From positions 1 to 26,592 of IMG/VR virus record IMGVR_UViG_2645727539_000008: 26,592 nucleotides of DNA, one strand, 5' to 3'. Of the stretch, positions 4,905 to 22,408 are shown piece after piece. The notes beneath the pieces were generated by a model that was given only the letters and a program-made list of their open reading frames with translations, made no database searches and was not told the origin of the DNA. This DNA comes from a virus. Taxonomy: Duplodnaviria > Heunggongvirae > Uroviricota > Caudoviricetes. Numbering within the stretch: the stretch's first letter is position 1; each line of letters begins with the position of its first letter. The position numbers and the translations under genes were made by a program.

Positions 4905-5407
4905 CTGTGTCGTCGCTCCGGCTTCAGTGATTTACGCAATTCCCGCGCCAGAAAATAGCGTGTCCAGCTGCGGTTCTTTTCAAGCGTTTCCACCATAAAG
5001 TTATTACGTGGAGCCAGCCGCCAGCCGCTGCCACCGGATGCACCACGATGATGACTACGACGACGTTTTGCTCCTCCCCGGACACCAAAAAACAGAAACG
5101 CCGGATAGAAGTCACCAGAGATCATCCGGTTCCCCTTCCCGTTGCGCTGGTTAGGGGCAATGCGTGTCATAAAACCGGCTCGCTTTTTACTAGCTCTCGG
5201 CACCATGTAACCAATCGAACGAGCCAGGCGTCCGGTCTGATAACCGGGGTTTTCACCCGGTGCCGACCGCGCACGGCGCATCACCAGCCGACGGGCATCA
5301 CGCATATGACGCTGCCCAATCGTGACAAACGCCCGCCGGACACGGGCGCGGTTAAAGCGCATCTCCGCGGGCTGCTGAACATCAACGTGAAAAAAGGGAG
5401 TCGCCAT
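4901..5407 (-). CDS. Putative neck / virion morphogenesis protein (HK97 gp10-like)
   Basis: 168 aa, very Arg-rich, in head-tail joining cluster; coupled to neighbours. Confidence 0.5.
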   Translation of the reverse strand: MATPFFHVDVQQPAEMRFNRARVRRAFVTIGQRHMRDARRLVMRRARSAPGENPGYQTGRLARSIGYMVPRASKKRAGFMTRIAPNQRNGKGNRMISGDFYPAFLFFGVRGGAKRRRSHHRGASGGSGWRLAPRNNFMVETLEKNRSWTRYFLARELRKSLKPERRHR

Positions 5408-5792
5408 TGCTGCCTCCGTGACTCTGCGTAAATTCGCCCAGTTCCGTACACTCCAGCAGCAGAAAGCGCCGCGCCCCGTTCAGATCGCGCTGACGTTTCA
5501 CCCGGTACACACTGTCATCACAGACCACCTCATAATCAGCAGTGATCCCCCGGCGGTAGCGAATGGTGATGTAATGGGTGATGGCGTCTCCGGTCTGCGC
5601 GGTTTCCTGCCAGGTGGTGGCACTGGTCTGGATAACCTTCGCCCATGCCCGGAACGCAACCGGGTATTGAGGCTCCACGCCAAAGTTATCCGCGGGCATA
5701 TCCACCCGCTGGCGGATCAGGACGCGTTTATTCAGTTCGCCGGGGTCCGGCAGAATGTAGGTTGCGCTGGTCTGCGCCTGACGAATTTTCAT
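5382..5792 (-). CDS. Head-tail adaptor / head closure protein
   Basis: 136 aa, position after the connector gene; resembles head-tail joining family proteins. Confidence 0.55.
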   Translation of the reverse strand: MKIRQAQTSATYILPDPGELNKRVLIRQRVDMPADNFGVEPQYPVAFRAWAKVIQTSATTWQETAQTGDAITHYITIRYRRGITADYEVVCDDSVYRVKRQRDLNGARRFLLLECTELGEFTQSHGGSNGDSLFSR

Positions 5793-6112
5793 AGTGGTAT
5801 AAGGCGATAAGGAACAACCAACCAGTTAAAACTCATTGGCAACTCCATTTTCTCAACGTCTGTAACCGTTGAGCGGTTTTCGTAGAAATGGCTGACAAGT
5901 AGCAGAAGCGCCAGCTTCACATCATCAGATATCACAAGCCCATCAGGATCATCCGCAGGCCTGTCATCTGCGGTTGCATACAACTTACGGTTAAGGAAGT
6001 TTTCCGTACGACTCTGAGCGGCCTTACCAAGCAGTTCAAGCAACTCATCTTCATCAGAGAAATCATCATCCAGACGGAGCTGAAGCTTAATCTCTTCCAT
6101 TTTTAACAGCAT
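5789..6112 (-). CDS. Head-tail connector (gp6-like DNA packaging protein)
   Basis: Start moved to internal ATG (MLLKMEEIK) preceded by AGGAGG; acidic ~107-aa protein immediately after the capsid gene. Confidence 0.6.
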   Translation of the reverse strand: MLLKMEEIKLQLRLDDDFSDEDELLELLGKAAQSRTENFLNRKLYATADDRPADDPDGLVISDDVKLALLLLVSHFYENRSTVTDVEKMELPMSFNWLVVPYRLIPL

Positions 6113-6190
6113 AAAACCTCCTGTGCCCGCCAGAACGCGGGCACAAAAAAACCGCATTACGCGGCGTGCTGTATTACGTAAAAAGACTAA

Positions 6191-7420
6191 TCAACCACCA
6201 ACGCTACCTTTCCCCACCAGCGCTTTAATGGCAGAGGTGTCTTCCAGGATACAGTCAAAACGATGGAAGGCCAGAAAACCAGTCTGATCATATTCCGCGT
6301 AACGCTCAACCAGACGTTTAAGAATCATGTATCGCACACGACGGATAATGAAGCGATCAAAGTCACCACAGAACATGAATTTTTTACCCGCCCCGATATC
6401 ATCAATTTCCTGATCAATGACATACGGTACATTCAACACTGAAGCAGGTGCCACACCAACAATATCCGGCAACCATAAAGGGCGTCCCTGACCGTCTTCC
6501 ATCTCACTGATCAGTTTCAGCGTATTATCGTTAAACGCCAGGCGGAATTTCGGCCCGCGACGATATGCAGGATCAATGCTGTGTTTCAGAGCCAGAATTT
6601 CCTGCCACTTCACCGTATTTGCCGCGGCAGTCTGTGTTGTGCCGGTCACAGATGCGACCAGCCCTTTGGGTTGTTTAGGCGTACCAGCACCAGTTCCCTG
6701 AATCAGATAACGGGCTTCACCACGACCAATACGTTCAGCAATGCGACGGGCAAGATAAGCTTCCATATCGATCGCGCTGTCCTGCAGCAACTCATTAGAC
6801 ACACGAATGATTTTCGATGTCATTTTGAGCGCCCCAAGACTTCCCATACCGAAATCGGTGTCTTCTTCACCGGCTTCTTCATTTTCGCCCAGCAGAACAC
6901 CAACTTCGGAAGTACCATCAGCTGTTGCCCACTCCATAGTGCGACCGTCAGAAGTGGTCAGAATCTGCGCCACACTGGCGATGCCACCGTAGGATTTCAT
7001 CTTCTCAACAACTTTCGCCAGGAATGTTTCTGGTACGGTATATCCGCCCTTTTCATCCTGAGCTACACCCTGGGCACGAAGTTCACGCAACGCCTTTCGT
7101 TCTTCTGATGTCAGCTCACTGGCACCGTGACGCATCCACTTATCAAAAACCTGAGCTCGTTTCTCATCCTGTTGCGGATTGTTTTCCGGATCAAGATTCT
7201 GACGCTGCTCTTCCTCATTGCTTTCAATGTACGCCTGATCCTGACGACGCAGTTCTTCTTCGCGTGCAATTCGTTCATCAAGCGCTTCCAGTTCGGATTT
7301 TGCTTTGTTCCACTCAGTGCGCTGCTCTTCCGTCCATGCGTTATCACCAATTTTTTCATTCAGGGCGCGCATGTCAGTTGCGATAGTATTACGTTTCTGT
7401 TTCAGTTCATGCAGTTTCAT
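6191..7420 (-). CDS. Major capsid protein, HK97 fold with N-terminal scaffold-like coiled-coil delta domain
   Basis: 409 aa; N-terminal ~100 aa charged coiled coil then capsid domain; follows the prohead protease gene. Confidence 0.9.
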   Translation of the reverse strand: MKLHELKQKRNTIATDMRALNEKIGDNAWTEEQRTEWNKAKSELEALDERIAREEELRRQDQAYIESNEEEQRQNLDPENNPQQDEKRAQVFDKWMRHGASELTSEERKALRELRAQGVAQDEKGGYTVPETFLAKVVEKMKSYGGIASVAQILTTSDGRTMEWATADGTSEVGVLLGENEEAGEEDTDFGMGSLGALKMTSKIIRVSNELLQDSAIDMEAYLARRIAERIGRGEARYLIQGTGAGTPKQPKGLVASVTGTTQTAAANTVKWQEILALKHSIDPAYRRGPKFRLAFNDNTLKLISEMEDGQGRPLWLPDIVGVAPASVLNVPYVIDQEIDDIGAGKKFMFCGDFDRFIIRRVRYMILKRLVERYAEYDQTGFLAFHRFDCILEDTSAIKALVGKGSVGG

Positions 7421-9403: not shown

Positions 9404-11133
9404 AGAATTAAGAGATCATCGTCCGGATCAAGAGATGAGAGGAAATCGTCAGGTTCTTTGAGCATTGCCCGACCGATCGTCATAATCAGTGCAACCGCAC
9501 CATCGATTTTGTTTTCCGCCTGCTCCTTGACGGGCTTCACTAAATCATCGTTACCAGGCATGTTTTTGCCGACCACATTGCCGATACACCAGGTCATGAT
9601 GGGATTGCCGTCATGATGAAAGCGTCCCGATTCAATCGCTGCTTCCAGCTCTTTCATCGGATCGGACATATTGGCGAAGTTCTGTACGATAGTGACGGGA
9701 TTCAGATCTTCATCAGCAAGGTCATGTGACAGCCCGGTCGCCCCGAAGGGGTCGATGGGTGACTCACTGACCGGGCTGATTTTGTTCGCCGCTTTGGCCT
9801 CTTCGAGGATGTAGCGATAATCCACCTCTGCACCATCGGTAACGGTCAGGACGCCCATTTCCACCCATTTCTGAAAGCGTTCGGCTGTCCGTCTATCTTC
9901 ATTTTTCTCGACGCTGTACACCGTGTCATACGGTACCCAGAAGCGCGGGGCCACACTGTAGTAATGCGTTTTACCGTCAATCTCGCGGGTATAAAGTCGC
10001 GCCATGCTGTTCATATCCAGCTTACGCGCCAGGTCAAAGGCCAGAATGCACGGCTGCCCCTCGAACTGCTCAAGGGTCAGTGATTTATCCTCGCAGCTCT
10101 GCCAGCTCACCAGGTTGAAATACGCCGAACGTGCCGACACCCAGATATTGAGGTGTTTTGTTTTAAAGACGTTTGCCAGACGGGCGTTATTTTTCGCACG
10201 CTGCTGCTGACTTAACAAAAATTCGCGATAAACCGACACGCCAATATTTGGATTGGCTTTTTCCAGCACCTGCGGGTCGGTCCAGTCGTCACCTTCATCA
10301 ACGGTATAGATGATCCCGAGCAGTTCATCGTTAGGCACCGAGCCGTTGAGCATCTCGATGACTTCCCGCCGCTTGTCGTAGCACGGCCCCTCAATGTTGT
10401 ACCCGGCGGTGGTGATGGCCCACATCAGTGGCTGACGTCGCGCCCCCATCCCGGTAAGCATTGTGGTATAAAGCGCATCGGTGGCATGCTCGTGATATTC
10501 ATCAACCACGGCACAGTGGGGTGATGAACCATCACCGGGGTTGCCGATCAGCGGTTCAAACCGCGCGCCATCCTCCGGACGGTTCATGTTTGAGGCGTTA
10601 ACCTCAATCCCGAACGCTTCCGTCAGCATGGGTGTGCGTTTACACATCAGTCGCGCCGGGCGAAAGACTTCCCACGCCTGTTTCTCTGTCGTGGCACCGG
10701 AATACACTTCCGCGCCAAACTCGTTATCACAGGCAAAACAATACAGGGCAACACCGGCAGAGATTGCTGATTTGCCGTTCTTACGGGGGATTTCGGTATA
10801 CACCTCCCGGAAGCGGCGCAACCGGGTGCCTTTATTGACCCAGCCAAACGCACAGCAGATCACAAATAGCTGCCACGGCTCCAGCGTGATGGGCATCCGT
10901 TTGAATGCCCACTCACCCTTGGTGTGCGGCAACAGCTGAATAAATTTCGCGGCCCGTTCAGCCAGGTCCTTGTCGAAGCGGTAACGAAACGACTTACTTT
11001 TTTCCGCCATCAGGTCATCAAGATGGCGCTGGCAGGCCTGAATCACAAACTGGCAGGCCACAATCTTTCCGCGCACGACATCACGGGCATACTGATTGGC
11101 AGCATTTACGTTGGGGTAAGATTTCCGGCTCAT
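9400..11133 (-). CDS. Terminase large subunit
   Basis: 577 aa; N-terminal ATPase region (GKS Walker A-like, VVDEYHE Walker B-like) and C-terminal nuclease region; follows the small subunit gene. Confidence 0.9.
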
Positions 11134-17617: not shown

Positions 17618-18007
17618 TCAGGCGGCTGCACCCGCCGTTTTCTCGTACTTACTGATAGTGATCTCGATCTTCCCTCCCGGGATAACCGGTCCCCACTCAA
17701 CCAGCATTCTTTTCACCTGACTGTCGTCTTCCCACACACCCGCGTGGGTCAGGGCGTCAAACAGCGCCTTGTTATAGTTGTCCAGATCGCGGATCCGGTT
17801 ATCCGGAGGAAACAACACGATCTCCACTGAAGCAGGTGCCGACGTTGGTTTCGGCAGGCGACGTAACTGCTCAACTATTGCTGCGCACGCCGCGCTCTGG
17901 AATTTGCGCCCCGCTGCGCTTATCAGACTCTTACCAGCAAACGCCCCTTTGTTGGGGTGTCGCCAGTACGTGTTCACGCTGGGCGGGAAAGGCAAGATCA
18001 GCTTCAT
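17618..18007 (-). CDS. rusA: Holliday junction resolvase RusA
   Basis: 129 aa, N-terminus MKLILPFPPSVNTYWR and conserved acidic residues typical of RusA; in nin region. Confidence 0.9.
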   Translation of the reverse strand: MKLILPFPPSVNTYWRHPNKGAFAGKSLISAAGRKFQSAACAAIVEQLRRLPKPTSAPASVEIVLFPPDNRIRDLDNYNKALFDALTHAGVWEDDSQVKRMLVEWGPVIPGGKIEITISKYEKTAGAAA

Positions 18008-18330
18008 ACTTTCAGGCCCCTCTCATGTAACCAGTGGGCTGCACGCAGCCTGCCGTTTTCCTCACCGGCAAGCAGTGCGCGGATAATCCCGACCGCCTCG
18101 CTGTCGTCGTCCTTCACCGCGGTATGAAGCGTTATCCCCCGGGCCACGCCACGCTTTATCGTGATGACGCCTTTTTTCTCCAGTGCACGAAGATGCTCTA
18201 CCGCTGCATTCACTGAACGGTATCCCAGCATGGTTGCCACCTCCTGATTGGTTGGCGGAAAGCCACGCTCTTTCTGATAAGAAATCAGCATATCCAGCAC
18301 CTGCTGCTGGCATTGAGTTAACGTCGTCAT
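18004..18330 (-). CDS. LexA N-terminal DNA-binding domain homolog lacking the S24 peptidase domain
   Basis: 108 aa; residues 1-70 align by eye with LexA residues 1-70 (QQ.V.D.I...G.PPT..E.A..LG.RS.NAA.EHL.AL..KGVI.I..G..RGI.L); no Ala-Gly cleavage site or Ser/Lys dyad. Confidence 0.8.
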   Translation of the reverse strand: MTTLTQCQQQVLDMLISYQKERGFPPTNQEVATMLGYRSVNAAVEHLRALEKKGVITIKRGVARGITLHTAVKDDDSEAVGIIRALLAGEENGRLRAAHWLHERGLKV

Positions 18331-18980
18331 GCCGCCATCTCCCTGACCAGTTTTTCCGCCTGCTGGCGAACCTGCGCCAGAAACGCCTCACCACATACCT
18401 CAAGTTCATCGCGCCCGATGTAGCTGATTGCCGGTCCCTTCCAGGTCTTATCGAAAACAGCAATAGCACCAGCGAAGAAAGCGCCTGTCGGCACCTGCTT
18501 CTCATCCTTCGGGATAAACCAGGCAGGCAGTTCAAAACCAATACGCCCGCGAATAAAAGCAATATGGTCTGCATCTTCCGGCCACCACACTTCGCTGGTG
18601 GCAGCTTTGATCAGGAAAACATAGCGCCCGCCTTTATCACGCATAGCACTGGCATGTTTCATGATGTAACGCATGCCGGTGATGTATTGCCCCTCATGCT
18701 GACTGGCGCGGCTGTACGGGGGATTACCAAAGGCAGCACCTTTAAGCTCCGCAAGACGTTCTGACCAGTCATGCGCCAGCGCGTTGTCTTCCGCAGTGTA
18801 ATAAGCGGCACATTTGGCGTTATCACCATCAGTAAACAGATCCAGAACAAACGGGCCAAACAGGGTGTTAATTCCCCAGAAAATGTTGTCCGGCGTGCGC
18901 CACTGATCGCCCACTTCCTTCAGTTCATGGGCTGGTTTGTTCCGCAGCTCCACCAGCGCCTGGCAATATTTATTACTCAT
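18327..18980 (-). CDS. Phage DNA N6-adenine methyltransferase (Dam-like)
   Basis: Contains NPPY motif (FGNPPYS); start taken at the ATG in a TAATG overlap with the upstream gene stop; ORF track extends to 19013. Confidence 0.8.
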   Translation of the reverse strand: MSNKYCQALVELRNKPAHELKEVGDQWRTPDNIFWGINTLFGPFVLDLFTDGDNAKCAAYYTAEDNALAHDWSERLAELKGAAFGNPPYSRASQHEGQYITGMRYIMKHASAMRDKGGRYVFLIKAATSEVWWPEDADHIAFIRGRIGFELPAWFIPKDEKQVPTGAFFAGAIAVFDKTWKGPAISYIGRDELEVCGEAFLAQVRQQAEKLVREMAA

Positions 18981-19474
18981 TAAGCCCCCACGTAATTCCC
19001 TGACAGATACCACTCTTCACCCGATGCAGCGCGCTTGCTGCTTTTCCGTAAGCACCGCTCACGATGCGCCAGAAAATTGTTTCGTTCTGGCTGGGAGTGG
19101 CTTTCACGGAATGCCGCCATCCACACCGTTGCAGCTCGACGGAATAAGCCCCTGGACTCCAGTTCTTCAGCCTGGCGGGTCAGGCACAAAATCACCCGGG
19201 GGTCGTTAGTGCCGACATAGAAATTGCGCACAGGTCTGGTTTCACGAACAGATTGTGGTTCCGGCTCCTGCGCTCTCTCAGTCAGGCGCGGGAAATGTCT
19301 GCGTGTATCTCCTTCACAACGGTGAGCCACACGCCCACTCTGACGTAACTTGCTTGCTGACTGCAGAACGCGCTGCCGTGAGTAACCAGCAAAAGCATCC
19401 GCAATGTCTCCGGAAGTACACCCAGGATGGGCTTCAATGAATTTCTGAACGTCATTTAACAGACTCATGATCAC
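18980..19474 (-). CDS. Hypothetical regulator, possible PerC-like C-terminal motif
   Basis: 164 aa; segment LESRGLFRRAATVWMAAF resembles the PerC/Pch family motif as recalled from memory; occupies the slot where a helicase loader is normally found. Confidence 0.4.
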   Translation of the reverse strand: MIMSLLNDVQKFIEAHPGCTSGDIADAFAGYSRQRVLQSASKLRQSGRVAHRCEGDTRRHFPRLTERAQEPEPQSVRETRPVRNFYVGTNDPRVILCLTRQAEELESRGLFRRAATVWMAAFRESHSQPERNNFLAHRERCLRKSSKRAASGEEWYLSGNYVGA

Positions 19475-20811: not shown

Positions 20812-21365
20812 GCGTTAGTTTCTCCACAACCAGAAGCAATCGACGCCACGACGCCCGGAGCTGCACACTCGCGGGCGTCATTACTTTCTGAAATGCAAAA
20901 AATTTTGTAGACAAGTGCTGCATGCTCCTGCAGCTTCGAAATTGAGAGATACAGCTCGTCGTTGATTGCTGTCTTCTCATGCGGTTCCACCACACCGTCT
21001 TCGATTGCCGAACGAATCTGTTTGGAATAACTGCCAATCTGTTCAATGACTTCCAGCAGGCGCTGGTTAATATCGGCGTTGTCCACATCCTCGACGTCAG
21101 GAAGAGACACAAAGACGCCATTTGCCGACTGCGCCACAGCGTCAGCAATGAAGTGAGTTCCACCAGCACGTTGCAAAATCATTGCCCATCCCAGCGGGAA
21201 AATCTGATCGCCATCGGCACGAAGGCGGTTAAATAATGCGTTCTCTGTTACATCCAGCCAGTCAGCTGCTTCAGCGTAACCACCCGGCAACTTTGCGATA
21301 GTTTTTCTGACAGCTTTCACGTACCACTCAGGCTGTTTTTCTACTTTCCAGTGATGCTTACCCAC
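20808..21365 (-). CDS. Putative CII-like early regulatory protein
   Basis: 185 aa, first gene after cro in the rightward operon, overlaps the cro stop; HTH-like N-terminal segment; assignment by position. Confidence 0.5.
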
Positions 21366-21618
21366 GGCTTACCTCCTGTTCCTGTGGTTTAAACCCATTC
21401 TGGTTTTGGCTAGATTGAAAACGTGCCGGATAAAGAATCTGCATTTCGCTGATTTCACCCTTAAAAAAATTGGCCAGACGCTCTGCAAGATCGATAGATG
21501 GAATTTGTTCCAGTCTCTCAATACGACTCAGCGTTGCTGGATTAACCTGAACGCCCGCAGCAACATGCTGCAAAGTAAACCCGTGCGCCTTACGCACATT
21601 TCGTAATGGTGATTGCAT
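21358..21618 (-). CDS. Cro-like repressor (XRE-family HTH)
   Basis: 86 aa with HTH GFTLQHVAAGVQVNPATLSRIER; divergent from cI across the operator region; SD GGAGG. Confidence 0.8.
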   Translation of the reverse strand: MQSPLRNVRKAHGFTLQHVAAGVQVNPATLSRIERLEQIPSIDLAERLANFFKGEISEMQILYPARFQSSQNQNGFKPQEQEVSRG

Positions 21619-21715: not shown

Positions 21716-22408
21716 ATGAACATAGGAAACCGAGTCAGACAACTTCGCCAGGCGAAGAACATGAAAATCGCCGATCTCGCTGAAGCAATAGGAGTGGATG
21801 CGGCGAATATCTCGCGCCTGGAAACAGGTAAGCAGAAACAATTCACTGAACAAGCCCTGAGTAATATTGCCAGGAGCTTAGGTGTTGATATTGCTGATCT
21901 CTTTACCTCAGACGTCAAAAGTAATACTGTATGTAAAAACAGTATTAGTGAGGATGTTGCGCAGGTGAAGGATGTATTCCGTATTGAAATGCTGGATGTC
22001 AGTGCCAGTGCGGGAAATGGCCTTATCCAGGGCGGTGATGTCATTGATGTGATTCATGCCATTGAATACAGAACTGATAATGCTGTATCGATGTTTGGCG
22101 GACGACCAGCCAATCACATTAAAGTTATCAACGTTCGTGGGGACAGTATGTGTCCAACCATTGAGCCAGGAGATCTCATCTTCGTTGATGTCAGTATCAA
22201 TCAGTTTGATGGAGATGGTATCTATGTATTTGGTTTTGATGATAAAATTTATGTCAAACGACTGCAAATGATACCTGACAAACTACTGGTGATATCTGAT
22301 AACCAGATTTACCGTGAATGGGGAATTACCAGCGAAAATGAACACCGGTTTATGGTCTTTGGAAAGGTCTTAATCAGCCAGTCACAAACCCTTAAACGAC
22401 ACAATTAA
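21716..22408 (+). CDS. CI-type prophage repressor (N-terminal HTH, C-terminal S24 LexA-like autopeptidase)
   Basis: 230 aa; HTH KIADLAEAIGVDAANISRLETG; Ala-Gly site in SASAGNG; Ser nucleophile in RGDSMCPT and Lys in VKRL. Confidence 0.9.
   Translation: MNIGNRVRQLRQAKNMKIADLAEAIGVDAANISRLETGKQKQFTEQALSNIARSLGVDIADLFTSDVKSNTVCKNSISEDVAQVKDVFRIEMLDVSASAGNGLIQGGDVIDVIHAIEYRTDNAVSMFGGRPANHIKVINVRGDSMCPTIEPGDLIFVDVSINQFDGDGIYVFGFDDKIYVKRLQMIPDKLLVISDNQIYREWGITSENEHRFMVFGKVLISQSQTLKRHN

Follow-up and report, generated by a model that had tools for sequence, protein, structure and literature searches.

What does a phage do with a protein that consists of the DNA-binding head of LexA followed by a short tail? 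The question is raised by a gene of IMG/VR virus record IMGVR_UViG_2645727539_000008 (Caudoviricetes), of which we analysed a stretch of 26,592 nucleotides, hereafter the window. The window is a lambdoid prophage, and the gene, here called the lexA-like gene, is a 108-amino acid open reading frame (ORF) with an ATG start at positions 18004-18330 of the minus strand; our ORF scan returned exactly the boundaries given in a preliminary description of this DNA. The ORF is a true gene whose match to LexA lies far above chance. Its sequence family is already known by annotation, as "LexA family transcriptional regulator" (PGAP) and as PHROG 362, whose name "transcriptional repressor" is an annotation and not an experimentally established function; full-text literature searches found no functional study of the lambdoid lexA-like protein. 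Our leading answer, which we consider plausible although short of probable, is that the protein is produced in lytic growth and, insensitive to RecA, represses CTGT-type (SOS-box-like) operators.

A LexA-type head and a conserved hairpin

The preliminary description had assigned the first ~70 residues to the LexA winged helix, and all comparisons agree with this. Pfam, phmmer, BLASTP and a structural model place a LexA-type winged helix-turn-helix at residues 1-68 (18127-18330, minus strand). The Pfam family LexA_DNA_bind (PF01726) covers residues 1-65 over its whole length (1-65 of 65), with E=2.9e-19 and 69 bits for a cutoff of 23.7. Among PDB chains, phmmer ranks highest 1LEA, which is the DNA-binding domain of LexA (E=7e-16), and chains of full-length LexA (E ~1e-15); E. 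coli LexA aligns by BLASTP with residues 1-90 at 43% identity over 90 amino acids (E=1e-21). The phrog_362 profile (1-106 of 106) matches residues 1-108 with E=1.1e-58. The AlphaFold2 model, computed from 15 family sequences, reaches a mean predicted local distance difference test score (pLDDT) of 85. Its head (pLDDT ~90) contains helices at residues 6-22, 28-35 and 40-52 and two strands, 56-58 and 66-68, that form a two-stranded wing; Foldseek superimposes the model on DNA-bound LexA (3JSO) with a root-mean-square deviation of 1.0 Å over 68 residues, at 50% identity. By alignment to LexA, the recognition helix corresponds to residues 39-52 (18175-18216, minus strand) and reads SVNAAVEHLRALEK, where LexA has SPNAAEEHLKALAR.

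The protease half of LexA is missing. The chain ends at residue 108, a Pfam search of it gave no match to Peptidase_S24 (PF00717), and the NCBIfam LexA equivalog TIGR00498 scored 70.1, below its cutoff of 110.95, matching along model positions 1-91 of 203 only. The protein therefore has no counterpart of the Ser/Lys dyad of LexA (Ser119/Lys156), and the absence of an autocleavage domain noted earlier holds. The uncleavable architecture proposed with it holds as well: since both the S24 domain and a conserved cleavage site are absent, RecA* cannot inactivate the lexA-like protein.

One part of that earlier statement has to be amended, namely that the protein has no Ala-Gly site. Literally this is wrong, as residues 88 and 89 are Ala and Gly (codons GCC GGT, 18064-18069, minus strand), and both HMMER and BLASTP align the surrounding LLAGE with the VAAGE of LexA and the pair with the LexA cleavage site Ala84-Gly85. 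Functionally the statement stands, because the pair is not conserved: homologues carry A-N, V-G, S-G, E-G, D/C-x and others at these positions. Given this variation, in close and distant homologues alike, we rejected Ala88-Gly89 as a functional cleavage site. The acidic hinge and the ..AGE segment still align with the hinge and cleavage region of LexA, and the Ala-Gly pair and the hinge are probably a vestige of a LexA truncated just past its cleavage region. The same register, in which IIRALLAGEE aligns with LexA VGRVAAGEP, would be expected of a RecA*-responsive substrate or decoy, either cut in trans at Ala88-Gly89 by LexA, cI or UmuD-type proteases or competing for RecA*. Kim and Little reportedly established in 1993 that both LexA and lambda cI can cleave intermolecularly. 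However, apart from the loss of the pair in homologues, the segment is modelled as a helix within the core of a hairpin and not as an extended cleavage loop, and we regard a function as substrate or decoy as very improbable.

This hairpin makes up most of the C-terminus, which the preliminary description had called unrelated. It is in fact conserved. Relatives were searched exhaustively with HMMER among 1.8 billion representatives, and the C-terminal segment is common, together with the DNA-binding domain, to short relatives down to ~40% identity. Conservation was followed in a sample of 254 loci, which fall into five clades (A-E) and encode 171 distinct protein sequences. The model and the conservation pattern delimit an amphipathic two-helix hairpin at residues 76-105 (18016-18105, minus strand), with modelled helices at 75-87 and 91-103 (pLDDT ~88) after a disordered stretch at 71-75. 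In four clades, positions 80, 82, 83, 86, 87, 97, 100 and 101 are hydrophobic in all sequences, and the same is true of most sequences at positions 93 (82%) and 98 (97%). Because this conserved hydrophobic surface is too large for a lone hairpin, we infer a dimer interface: the hairpin is probably a dimerisation module that forms a four-helix bundle. The lexA-like gene encodes a truncated paralogue of proteobacterial LexA, composed of head, short acidic linker and two-helix hairpin. The C-terminal module is exchangeable, since the same LexA head (PF01726, E=1.6e-19) is followed by an unrelated ~90-residue domain in locus L165 (5998-6477; also in L164-L171); a Pfam search of that domain gave no match.

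A dimeric protein with a LexA head could also be imagined to pair with host LexA itself, and the preliminary description had raised such heterodimerisation. Mixed dimers would poison or modify LexA, and the shared DNA-binding domain is the one support for them; LexA N-terminal domains reportedly touch each other on DNA. However, LexA dimerises through its C-terminal S24 domain, which is entirely absent here, and the hairpin has no counterpart in LexA. Mixed dimers are therefore disfavoured, and we hold them to be scarcely credible.

DNA reading and the proposed repression

In LexA, the DNA-contacting residues are S39, N41, A42, E44 and E45 (PMC3091678, PMC13416735). Among the 171 family sequences, S39, N41, R64, G65 and I66 never vary and A42 is present in ~99%; the clade of the window keeps four of the five LexA contacts, S39, N41, A42 and E45. 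Compared with E. coli LexA (PF01726 + PF00717; 1JHH, 3JSO), the winged helix is homologous and S39, N41, A42, E45 and R64-G65 are identical. The phage protein differs by a Val in place of E44, by the loss of the S24 protease and dimerisation domain with its dyad and of the conserved cleavage site, and by the 30-residue helical hairpin that stands where the C-terminal domain of LexA begins. It is encoded by a phage in a lytic operon, whereas the LexA gene is an autoregulated host locus. The gene is under purifying selection: pairwise ratios of nonsynonymous to synonymous substitution rates (dN/dS) lie between 0.05 and 0.27 in three clades and are equally low in both halves, with 0.07-0.23 in the hairpin, as low as in the DNA-binding domain.

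The position of the gene tells when the protein is made. It shares 4 nucleotides (ATGA) with the upstream dam gene and 4 with the downstream rusA gene, a promoter scan found no promoter-like site upstream of it, and no non-coding DNA flanks it in the loci examined from clades A-D. As it overlaps its neighbours on both sides and has no non-coding DNA of its own, it lies within the lytic pR operon and belongs to the delayed-early lytic genes and not to the lysogenic ones. It follows from this pR transcription that the protein is made only after infection or induction.

These features would be combined as follows in a RecA-insensitive repressor. The hairpin would pair two subunits into a four-helix bundle, and the two LexA-type heads would occupy an inverted repeat with CTGT-like half-sites; such binding is expected because the S-x-N-A motif, E45 and the wing are kept and the hairpin would tether the two heads. 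With neither a protease domain nor a conserved cleavage site, the protein would be blind to RecA*, and once host LexA has been destroyed it would restore or sustain repression at LexA-type operators, with RecA* still active. Candidate targets would be host SOS genes, LexA-controlled rivals such as colicins and antirepressor-type prophages, and possibly an SOS box inside the cI gene of the phage (see below).

A close parallel for the proposed repressing activity is the LexA 1-84 fragment, essentially the same piece of LexA, in which the DNA-binding domain is followed by the hinge as far as the cleavage site. It is a monomer whose binding is weaker by 10-1000 fold, and ClpXP removes it; Neher et al. 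reportedly found in 2003 that removal proceeds via the ..VAA C-terminus created by cleavage. The chain of the phage protein ends in ..RGLKV and contains a probable dimerisation element of its own, and by inference we expect it to be stable and to have a higher affinity than LexA 1-84. The free N-terminal fragment shows weakened operator binding with residual repression, and its degradation by ClpXP is needed for full SOS induction (PMC11442139). Since the cleaved fragment retains weak binding, a stable, dimeric and uncleavable version should repress.

The gene is widespread. It occurs at 95-99% identity in 2233 of 5426 complete E. coli genomes (41%), the identical protein is found on 738 public contigs under the annotation "LexA family transcriptional regulator", and 50 phage records contain the gene, including SfII, SfIV, SfV, mEp460, cdtI, 1720a-02 and Stx2a and Stx2c phages, with annotations such as "LexA DNA binding domain protein" and "repressor, lexA family". 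In the wider form of the proposal, 41% of complete E. coli genomes, with Stx2a/Stx2c, SfII/SfV and cdt phages among the carriers, would hold a stable RecA-blind LexA mimic that during lytic growth re-silences the SOS regulon and LexA-controlled competitors; alongside host LexA, it might also act at the conserved SOS operator inside cI and would then give the lambdoid lysis-lysogeny switch a LexA-type layer. We find this wider form rather doubtful.

Prophage induction, the release of Shiga toxin, mutagenesis and antibiotic tolerance are all driven by the SOS response, and prophages in about four of ten sequenced E. coli genomes, as well as Stx2 phages, could supply an uncleavable occupant of LexA operators. 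If the protein does bind LexA operators, it would alter the duration and strength of SOS expression after DNA damage and could determine which of several co-resident prophages prevails. The protein would further be the second independent phage reuse of a LexA head after gp6 of Bacillus phage GIL01, which would make "truncated LexA" a recurrent strategy. The architecture itself will hardly surprise specialists; the prevalence of the gene, its presence in Stx phages and its testability are its main appeal. GIL01 gp7, DinI-like proteins and PsiB are SOS modulators of phages and plasmids that weaken or alter the response of the host; they bind LexA or RecA and not DNA, and have no homology to the lexA-like protein.

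The SOS box inside cI and the choice of operator

The preliminary description had pointed to positions 21925-21944 as a possible binding site of the protein. There is indeed a consensus-grade SOS box at this site, TACTGTATGTAAAAACAGTA, which is the sole perfect CTGT-N8-ACAG in the window and lies at codons ~69-74 of cI (21716-22408, plus strand; repressor with S24 domain), in the variable linker between the helix-turn-helix and S24 domains. It belongs to a 9-8-9 perfect palindrome, TAATACTGT-ATGTAAAA-ACAGTATTA (21922-21947), the only operator-like perfect AT-rich palindrome in the window; that this palindrome is a consensus SOS box speaks for the proposed repression. The box, with unchanged arms and 5' TA, is found at the same codons in 160 of 160 cI homologues, which form two lineages with ~70% protein identity. 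Over 44 distinct 199-nucleotide cI segments, no variation is seen at the eight arm positions or at the 5' TA, synonymous third positions included, while the 8-nucleotide spacer occurs in at least 10 variants and the third-codon positions around the box have a mean entropy of 0.88 bits, with only 4 of 60 invariant. Invariant arms, down to synonymous sites, beside a variable spacer and within a hypervariable linker are strong evidence that selection acts on the DNA of the box itself.

The box is not tied to the lexA-like gene, however. It occurs with and without the gene in 65 and 3 loci of one lineage and in 25 and 36 loci of the other. As it is present irrespective of the gene, we ruled it out as the dedicated site of the lexA-like protein, and it is most simply explained as an operator of host LexA, to which the lexA-like protein may bind as well. 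A possible sense-strand promoter was noticed at the same place within cI, with TTTACC (21902), 17 nucleotides and TACTGT (21925), the spacing being conserved. From this promoter the C-terminal domain of cI alone might be expressed in an SOS-inducible manner, starting at M92 (ATG 21989), which has a weak ribosome-binding site here.

No other operator candidate emerged from the window. A scan for CTGT/ACAG half-sites at spacings of 0-20 gave single chance-level matches besides the N8 box, the number of one-mismatch SOS boxes (15, for 9.3 +/- 3.4 expected) is at chance level, the other perfect palindromes of at least 7+7 are GC-rich terminator stems, and no candidate operator for the lexA-like protein was found near the late genes. 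A second recurrent SOS box, ATACTGTAAAAATAAACAGTG, was seen outside the window, at 10649-10669 of locus L009, where it covers codons 3-9 of a 350-amino acid DPPY-motif DNA methyltransferase downstream of Q; it is present in ~18 close relatives with the lexA-like gene.

Several observations weigh against a repressor of LexA-type operators. The cI box is kept equally well in 39 loci that lack the gene, counting those with sufficient flanking DNA. No family member has kept E44, its place being taken by V, A, T or F (Val in the window protein), and E45, kept in 26 of 26 sequences of clade A, is partly lost in clades B (45 of 68 keep it) and D (16 of 29) and is replaced by D in clade E and by S in clade C. 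With E44 always replaced and E45 varying by clade, the exact specificity of LexA is not guaranteed. These losses would not be expected from a conserved mimic of host LexA, given that all hosts are enterobacteria with the same LexA. The lexA-like protein is ~43% identical between clades, compared with roughly 75% for RusA (an estimate made by eye from the sequences, not computed), and this fast evolution, together with the variation at E44 and E45, would fit a regulator with its own diversifying operator. Finally, prophage interference by phi1720a-02, which has the lexA-like gene, is fully explained by Cro, in experiments that did not include the lexA-like gene.

These points lead to the alternative of a phage-specific transcription factor whose LexA head has drifted to an operator of its own at one or a few non-SOS promoters, where it would activate or repress phage or host promoters, for example to time late or accessory genes. 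The precedent is GIL01 gp6, also a phage LexA homologue cut to its DNA-binding domain, RecA-insensitive and made early in lytic growth. This 66-amino acid protein, with K38 as a changed reading residue and no extra C-terminal module, binds a different palindrome, GaCACAn-nTGTGaC, and switches on transcription from the late promoter P3, at a site overlapping the -35 element (PMC6182141). When the window protein was compared with GIL01 ORF6 by BLASTP, no alignment appeared at E<=100, and in view of this lack of similarity the two proteins are independent truncations of different LexA lineages; the lexA-like protein, of independent origin, has kept LexA-type reading residues and added a conserved hairpin. 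The loss of E44 throughout the family and clade-specific changes at E45 and at residues 28 and 38 resemble a diversifying specificity, and the swapped C-terminal module of L165 and the rapid evolution of the family between clades point the same way. On the other hand, S39, N41, A42 and E45 are identical to LexA in the clade of the window, and the window contains no second conserved palindrome of CTGT half-sites at spacings of 0-20, its sole perfect AT-rich palindrome being the SOS box. Furthermore, flanking non-coding DNA is missing at the loci examined from clades A-D, and Q already governs the late genes of lambdoid phages. We consider a drifted factor of this kind rather unlikely, but it is the main alternative.

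Neighbouring genes and relatives of the family

The preliminary description had placed the gene in an operon with a Dam-type methyltransferase and RusA, and the overlaps on both sides bear this out, as the three genes are translationally coupled. The order of the right operon, on the minus strand, is cro (21358-21618, its first gene, divergent from cI), cII-like, O-like, PerC-like, dam, lexA-like, rusA, KilA-N, DUF968/HNH and Q (DUF1133). The stop of the Dam-type N6-adenine methyltransferase gene (18327-18980, minus strand; PF05869, E=2e-45) overlaps the start of the lexA-like gene, and the start of the RusA Holliday-junction resolvase gene (17618-18007, minus strand; PF05866, E=8e-15) overlaps its stop. 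The longest dam ORF starts with GTG at 19013; ATG at 18980, which overlaps the PerC-like stop, is the likelier start, on the basis of a PADLOC MTase_II match that begins at residue 12 and of the 654-nucleotide dam of SfII. The longest-ORF start of KilA-N (TTG 17700) is probably over-extended too, with ATG 17598 as the likely start (the SfII homologue has 798 nucleotides).

The constancy of this neighbourhood differs on the two sides. Upstream, dam is present in 52 of 80 close loci, an MT-A70-like enzyme (motifs read by eye) takes its place in clade B, and clade C has dam and a large, apparently cytosine-type methyltransferase (judged by eye). Downstream, rusA starts at most 30 nucleotides after the lexA-like stop in 212 of the 254 loci (A 80/80, B 80/80, C 10/10, E 37/52), and one gene away in 13 further loci of clade E. 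This persistence, across clades that are 40-50% identical and beside an exchangeable upstream gene, would suit an accessory DNA-binding partner of RusA or of the phage DNA-metabolism module that targets or restrains junction cleavage, and the L165 variant likewise remains ATGA-coupled to rusA despite its different C-terminal domain. Such a partnership is not obligate, however: a tblastn search with the window RusA detected none in 27 of 32 clade D loci, and RusA is frequent without the lexA-like gene (32 loci). Moreover, packing by ATGA overlaps is general in nin regions, and the strictly kept base-reading residues S39 and N41 point to sequence-specific binding. We therefore rate a RusA accessory as quite improbable.

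In clade D (L265, 5324-5520), a conserved ~66-amino acid ORF (MKKSWFLHEQLSESQALELAERYRKK...) replaces rusA and kilA-N between the lexA-like gene and DUF968; it is ATGA-coupled at both ends, and Q follows DUF968. The ~190-nucleotide gap 3' of the clade D lexA-like genes is this small ORF, and was discarded as an intergenic region. Two other loci, L177 (~5258-6297) and L200 (~5296-6347), have no lexA-like gene, and dam directly abuts rusA in them; L180 is without dam, lexA-like, rusA and kilA-N. All three share the same cI (99-100% identical) and are natural comparators lacking the lexA-like gene. Because dam-rusA junctions and RusA without the lexA-like gene occur naturally, the latter is a dispensable nin-region cassette, often but not always linked to rusA. 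A defence or anti-defence role was set aside, PADLOC having given just one marginal CARF match (E=4e-4).

Beyond these phages, a profile search of genome contigs with a narrower alignment reached few species, i.e. Shigella, Citrobacter and Kosakonia. Loci in Planctomycetota metagenome-assembled genomes (L351-L364) match across the DNA-binding domain only, and it is only a guess that they are linked to the tandem-LexA type of two other proteins, P0132 and P0133. These two have two tandem LexA DNA-binding domains per chain and no protease domain, a further reuse of the LexA head in non-cleavable form.

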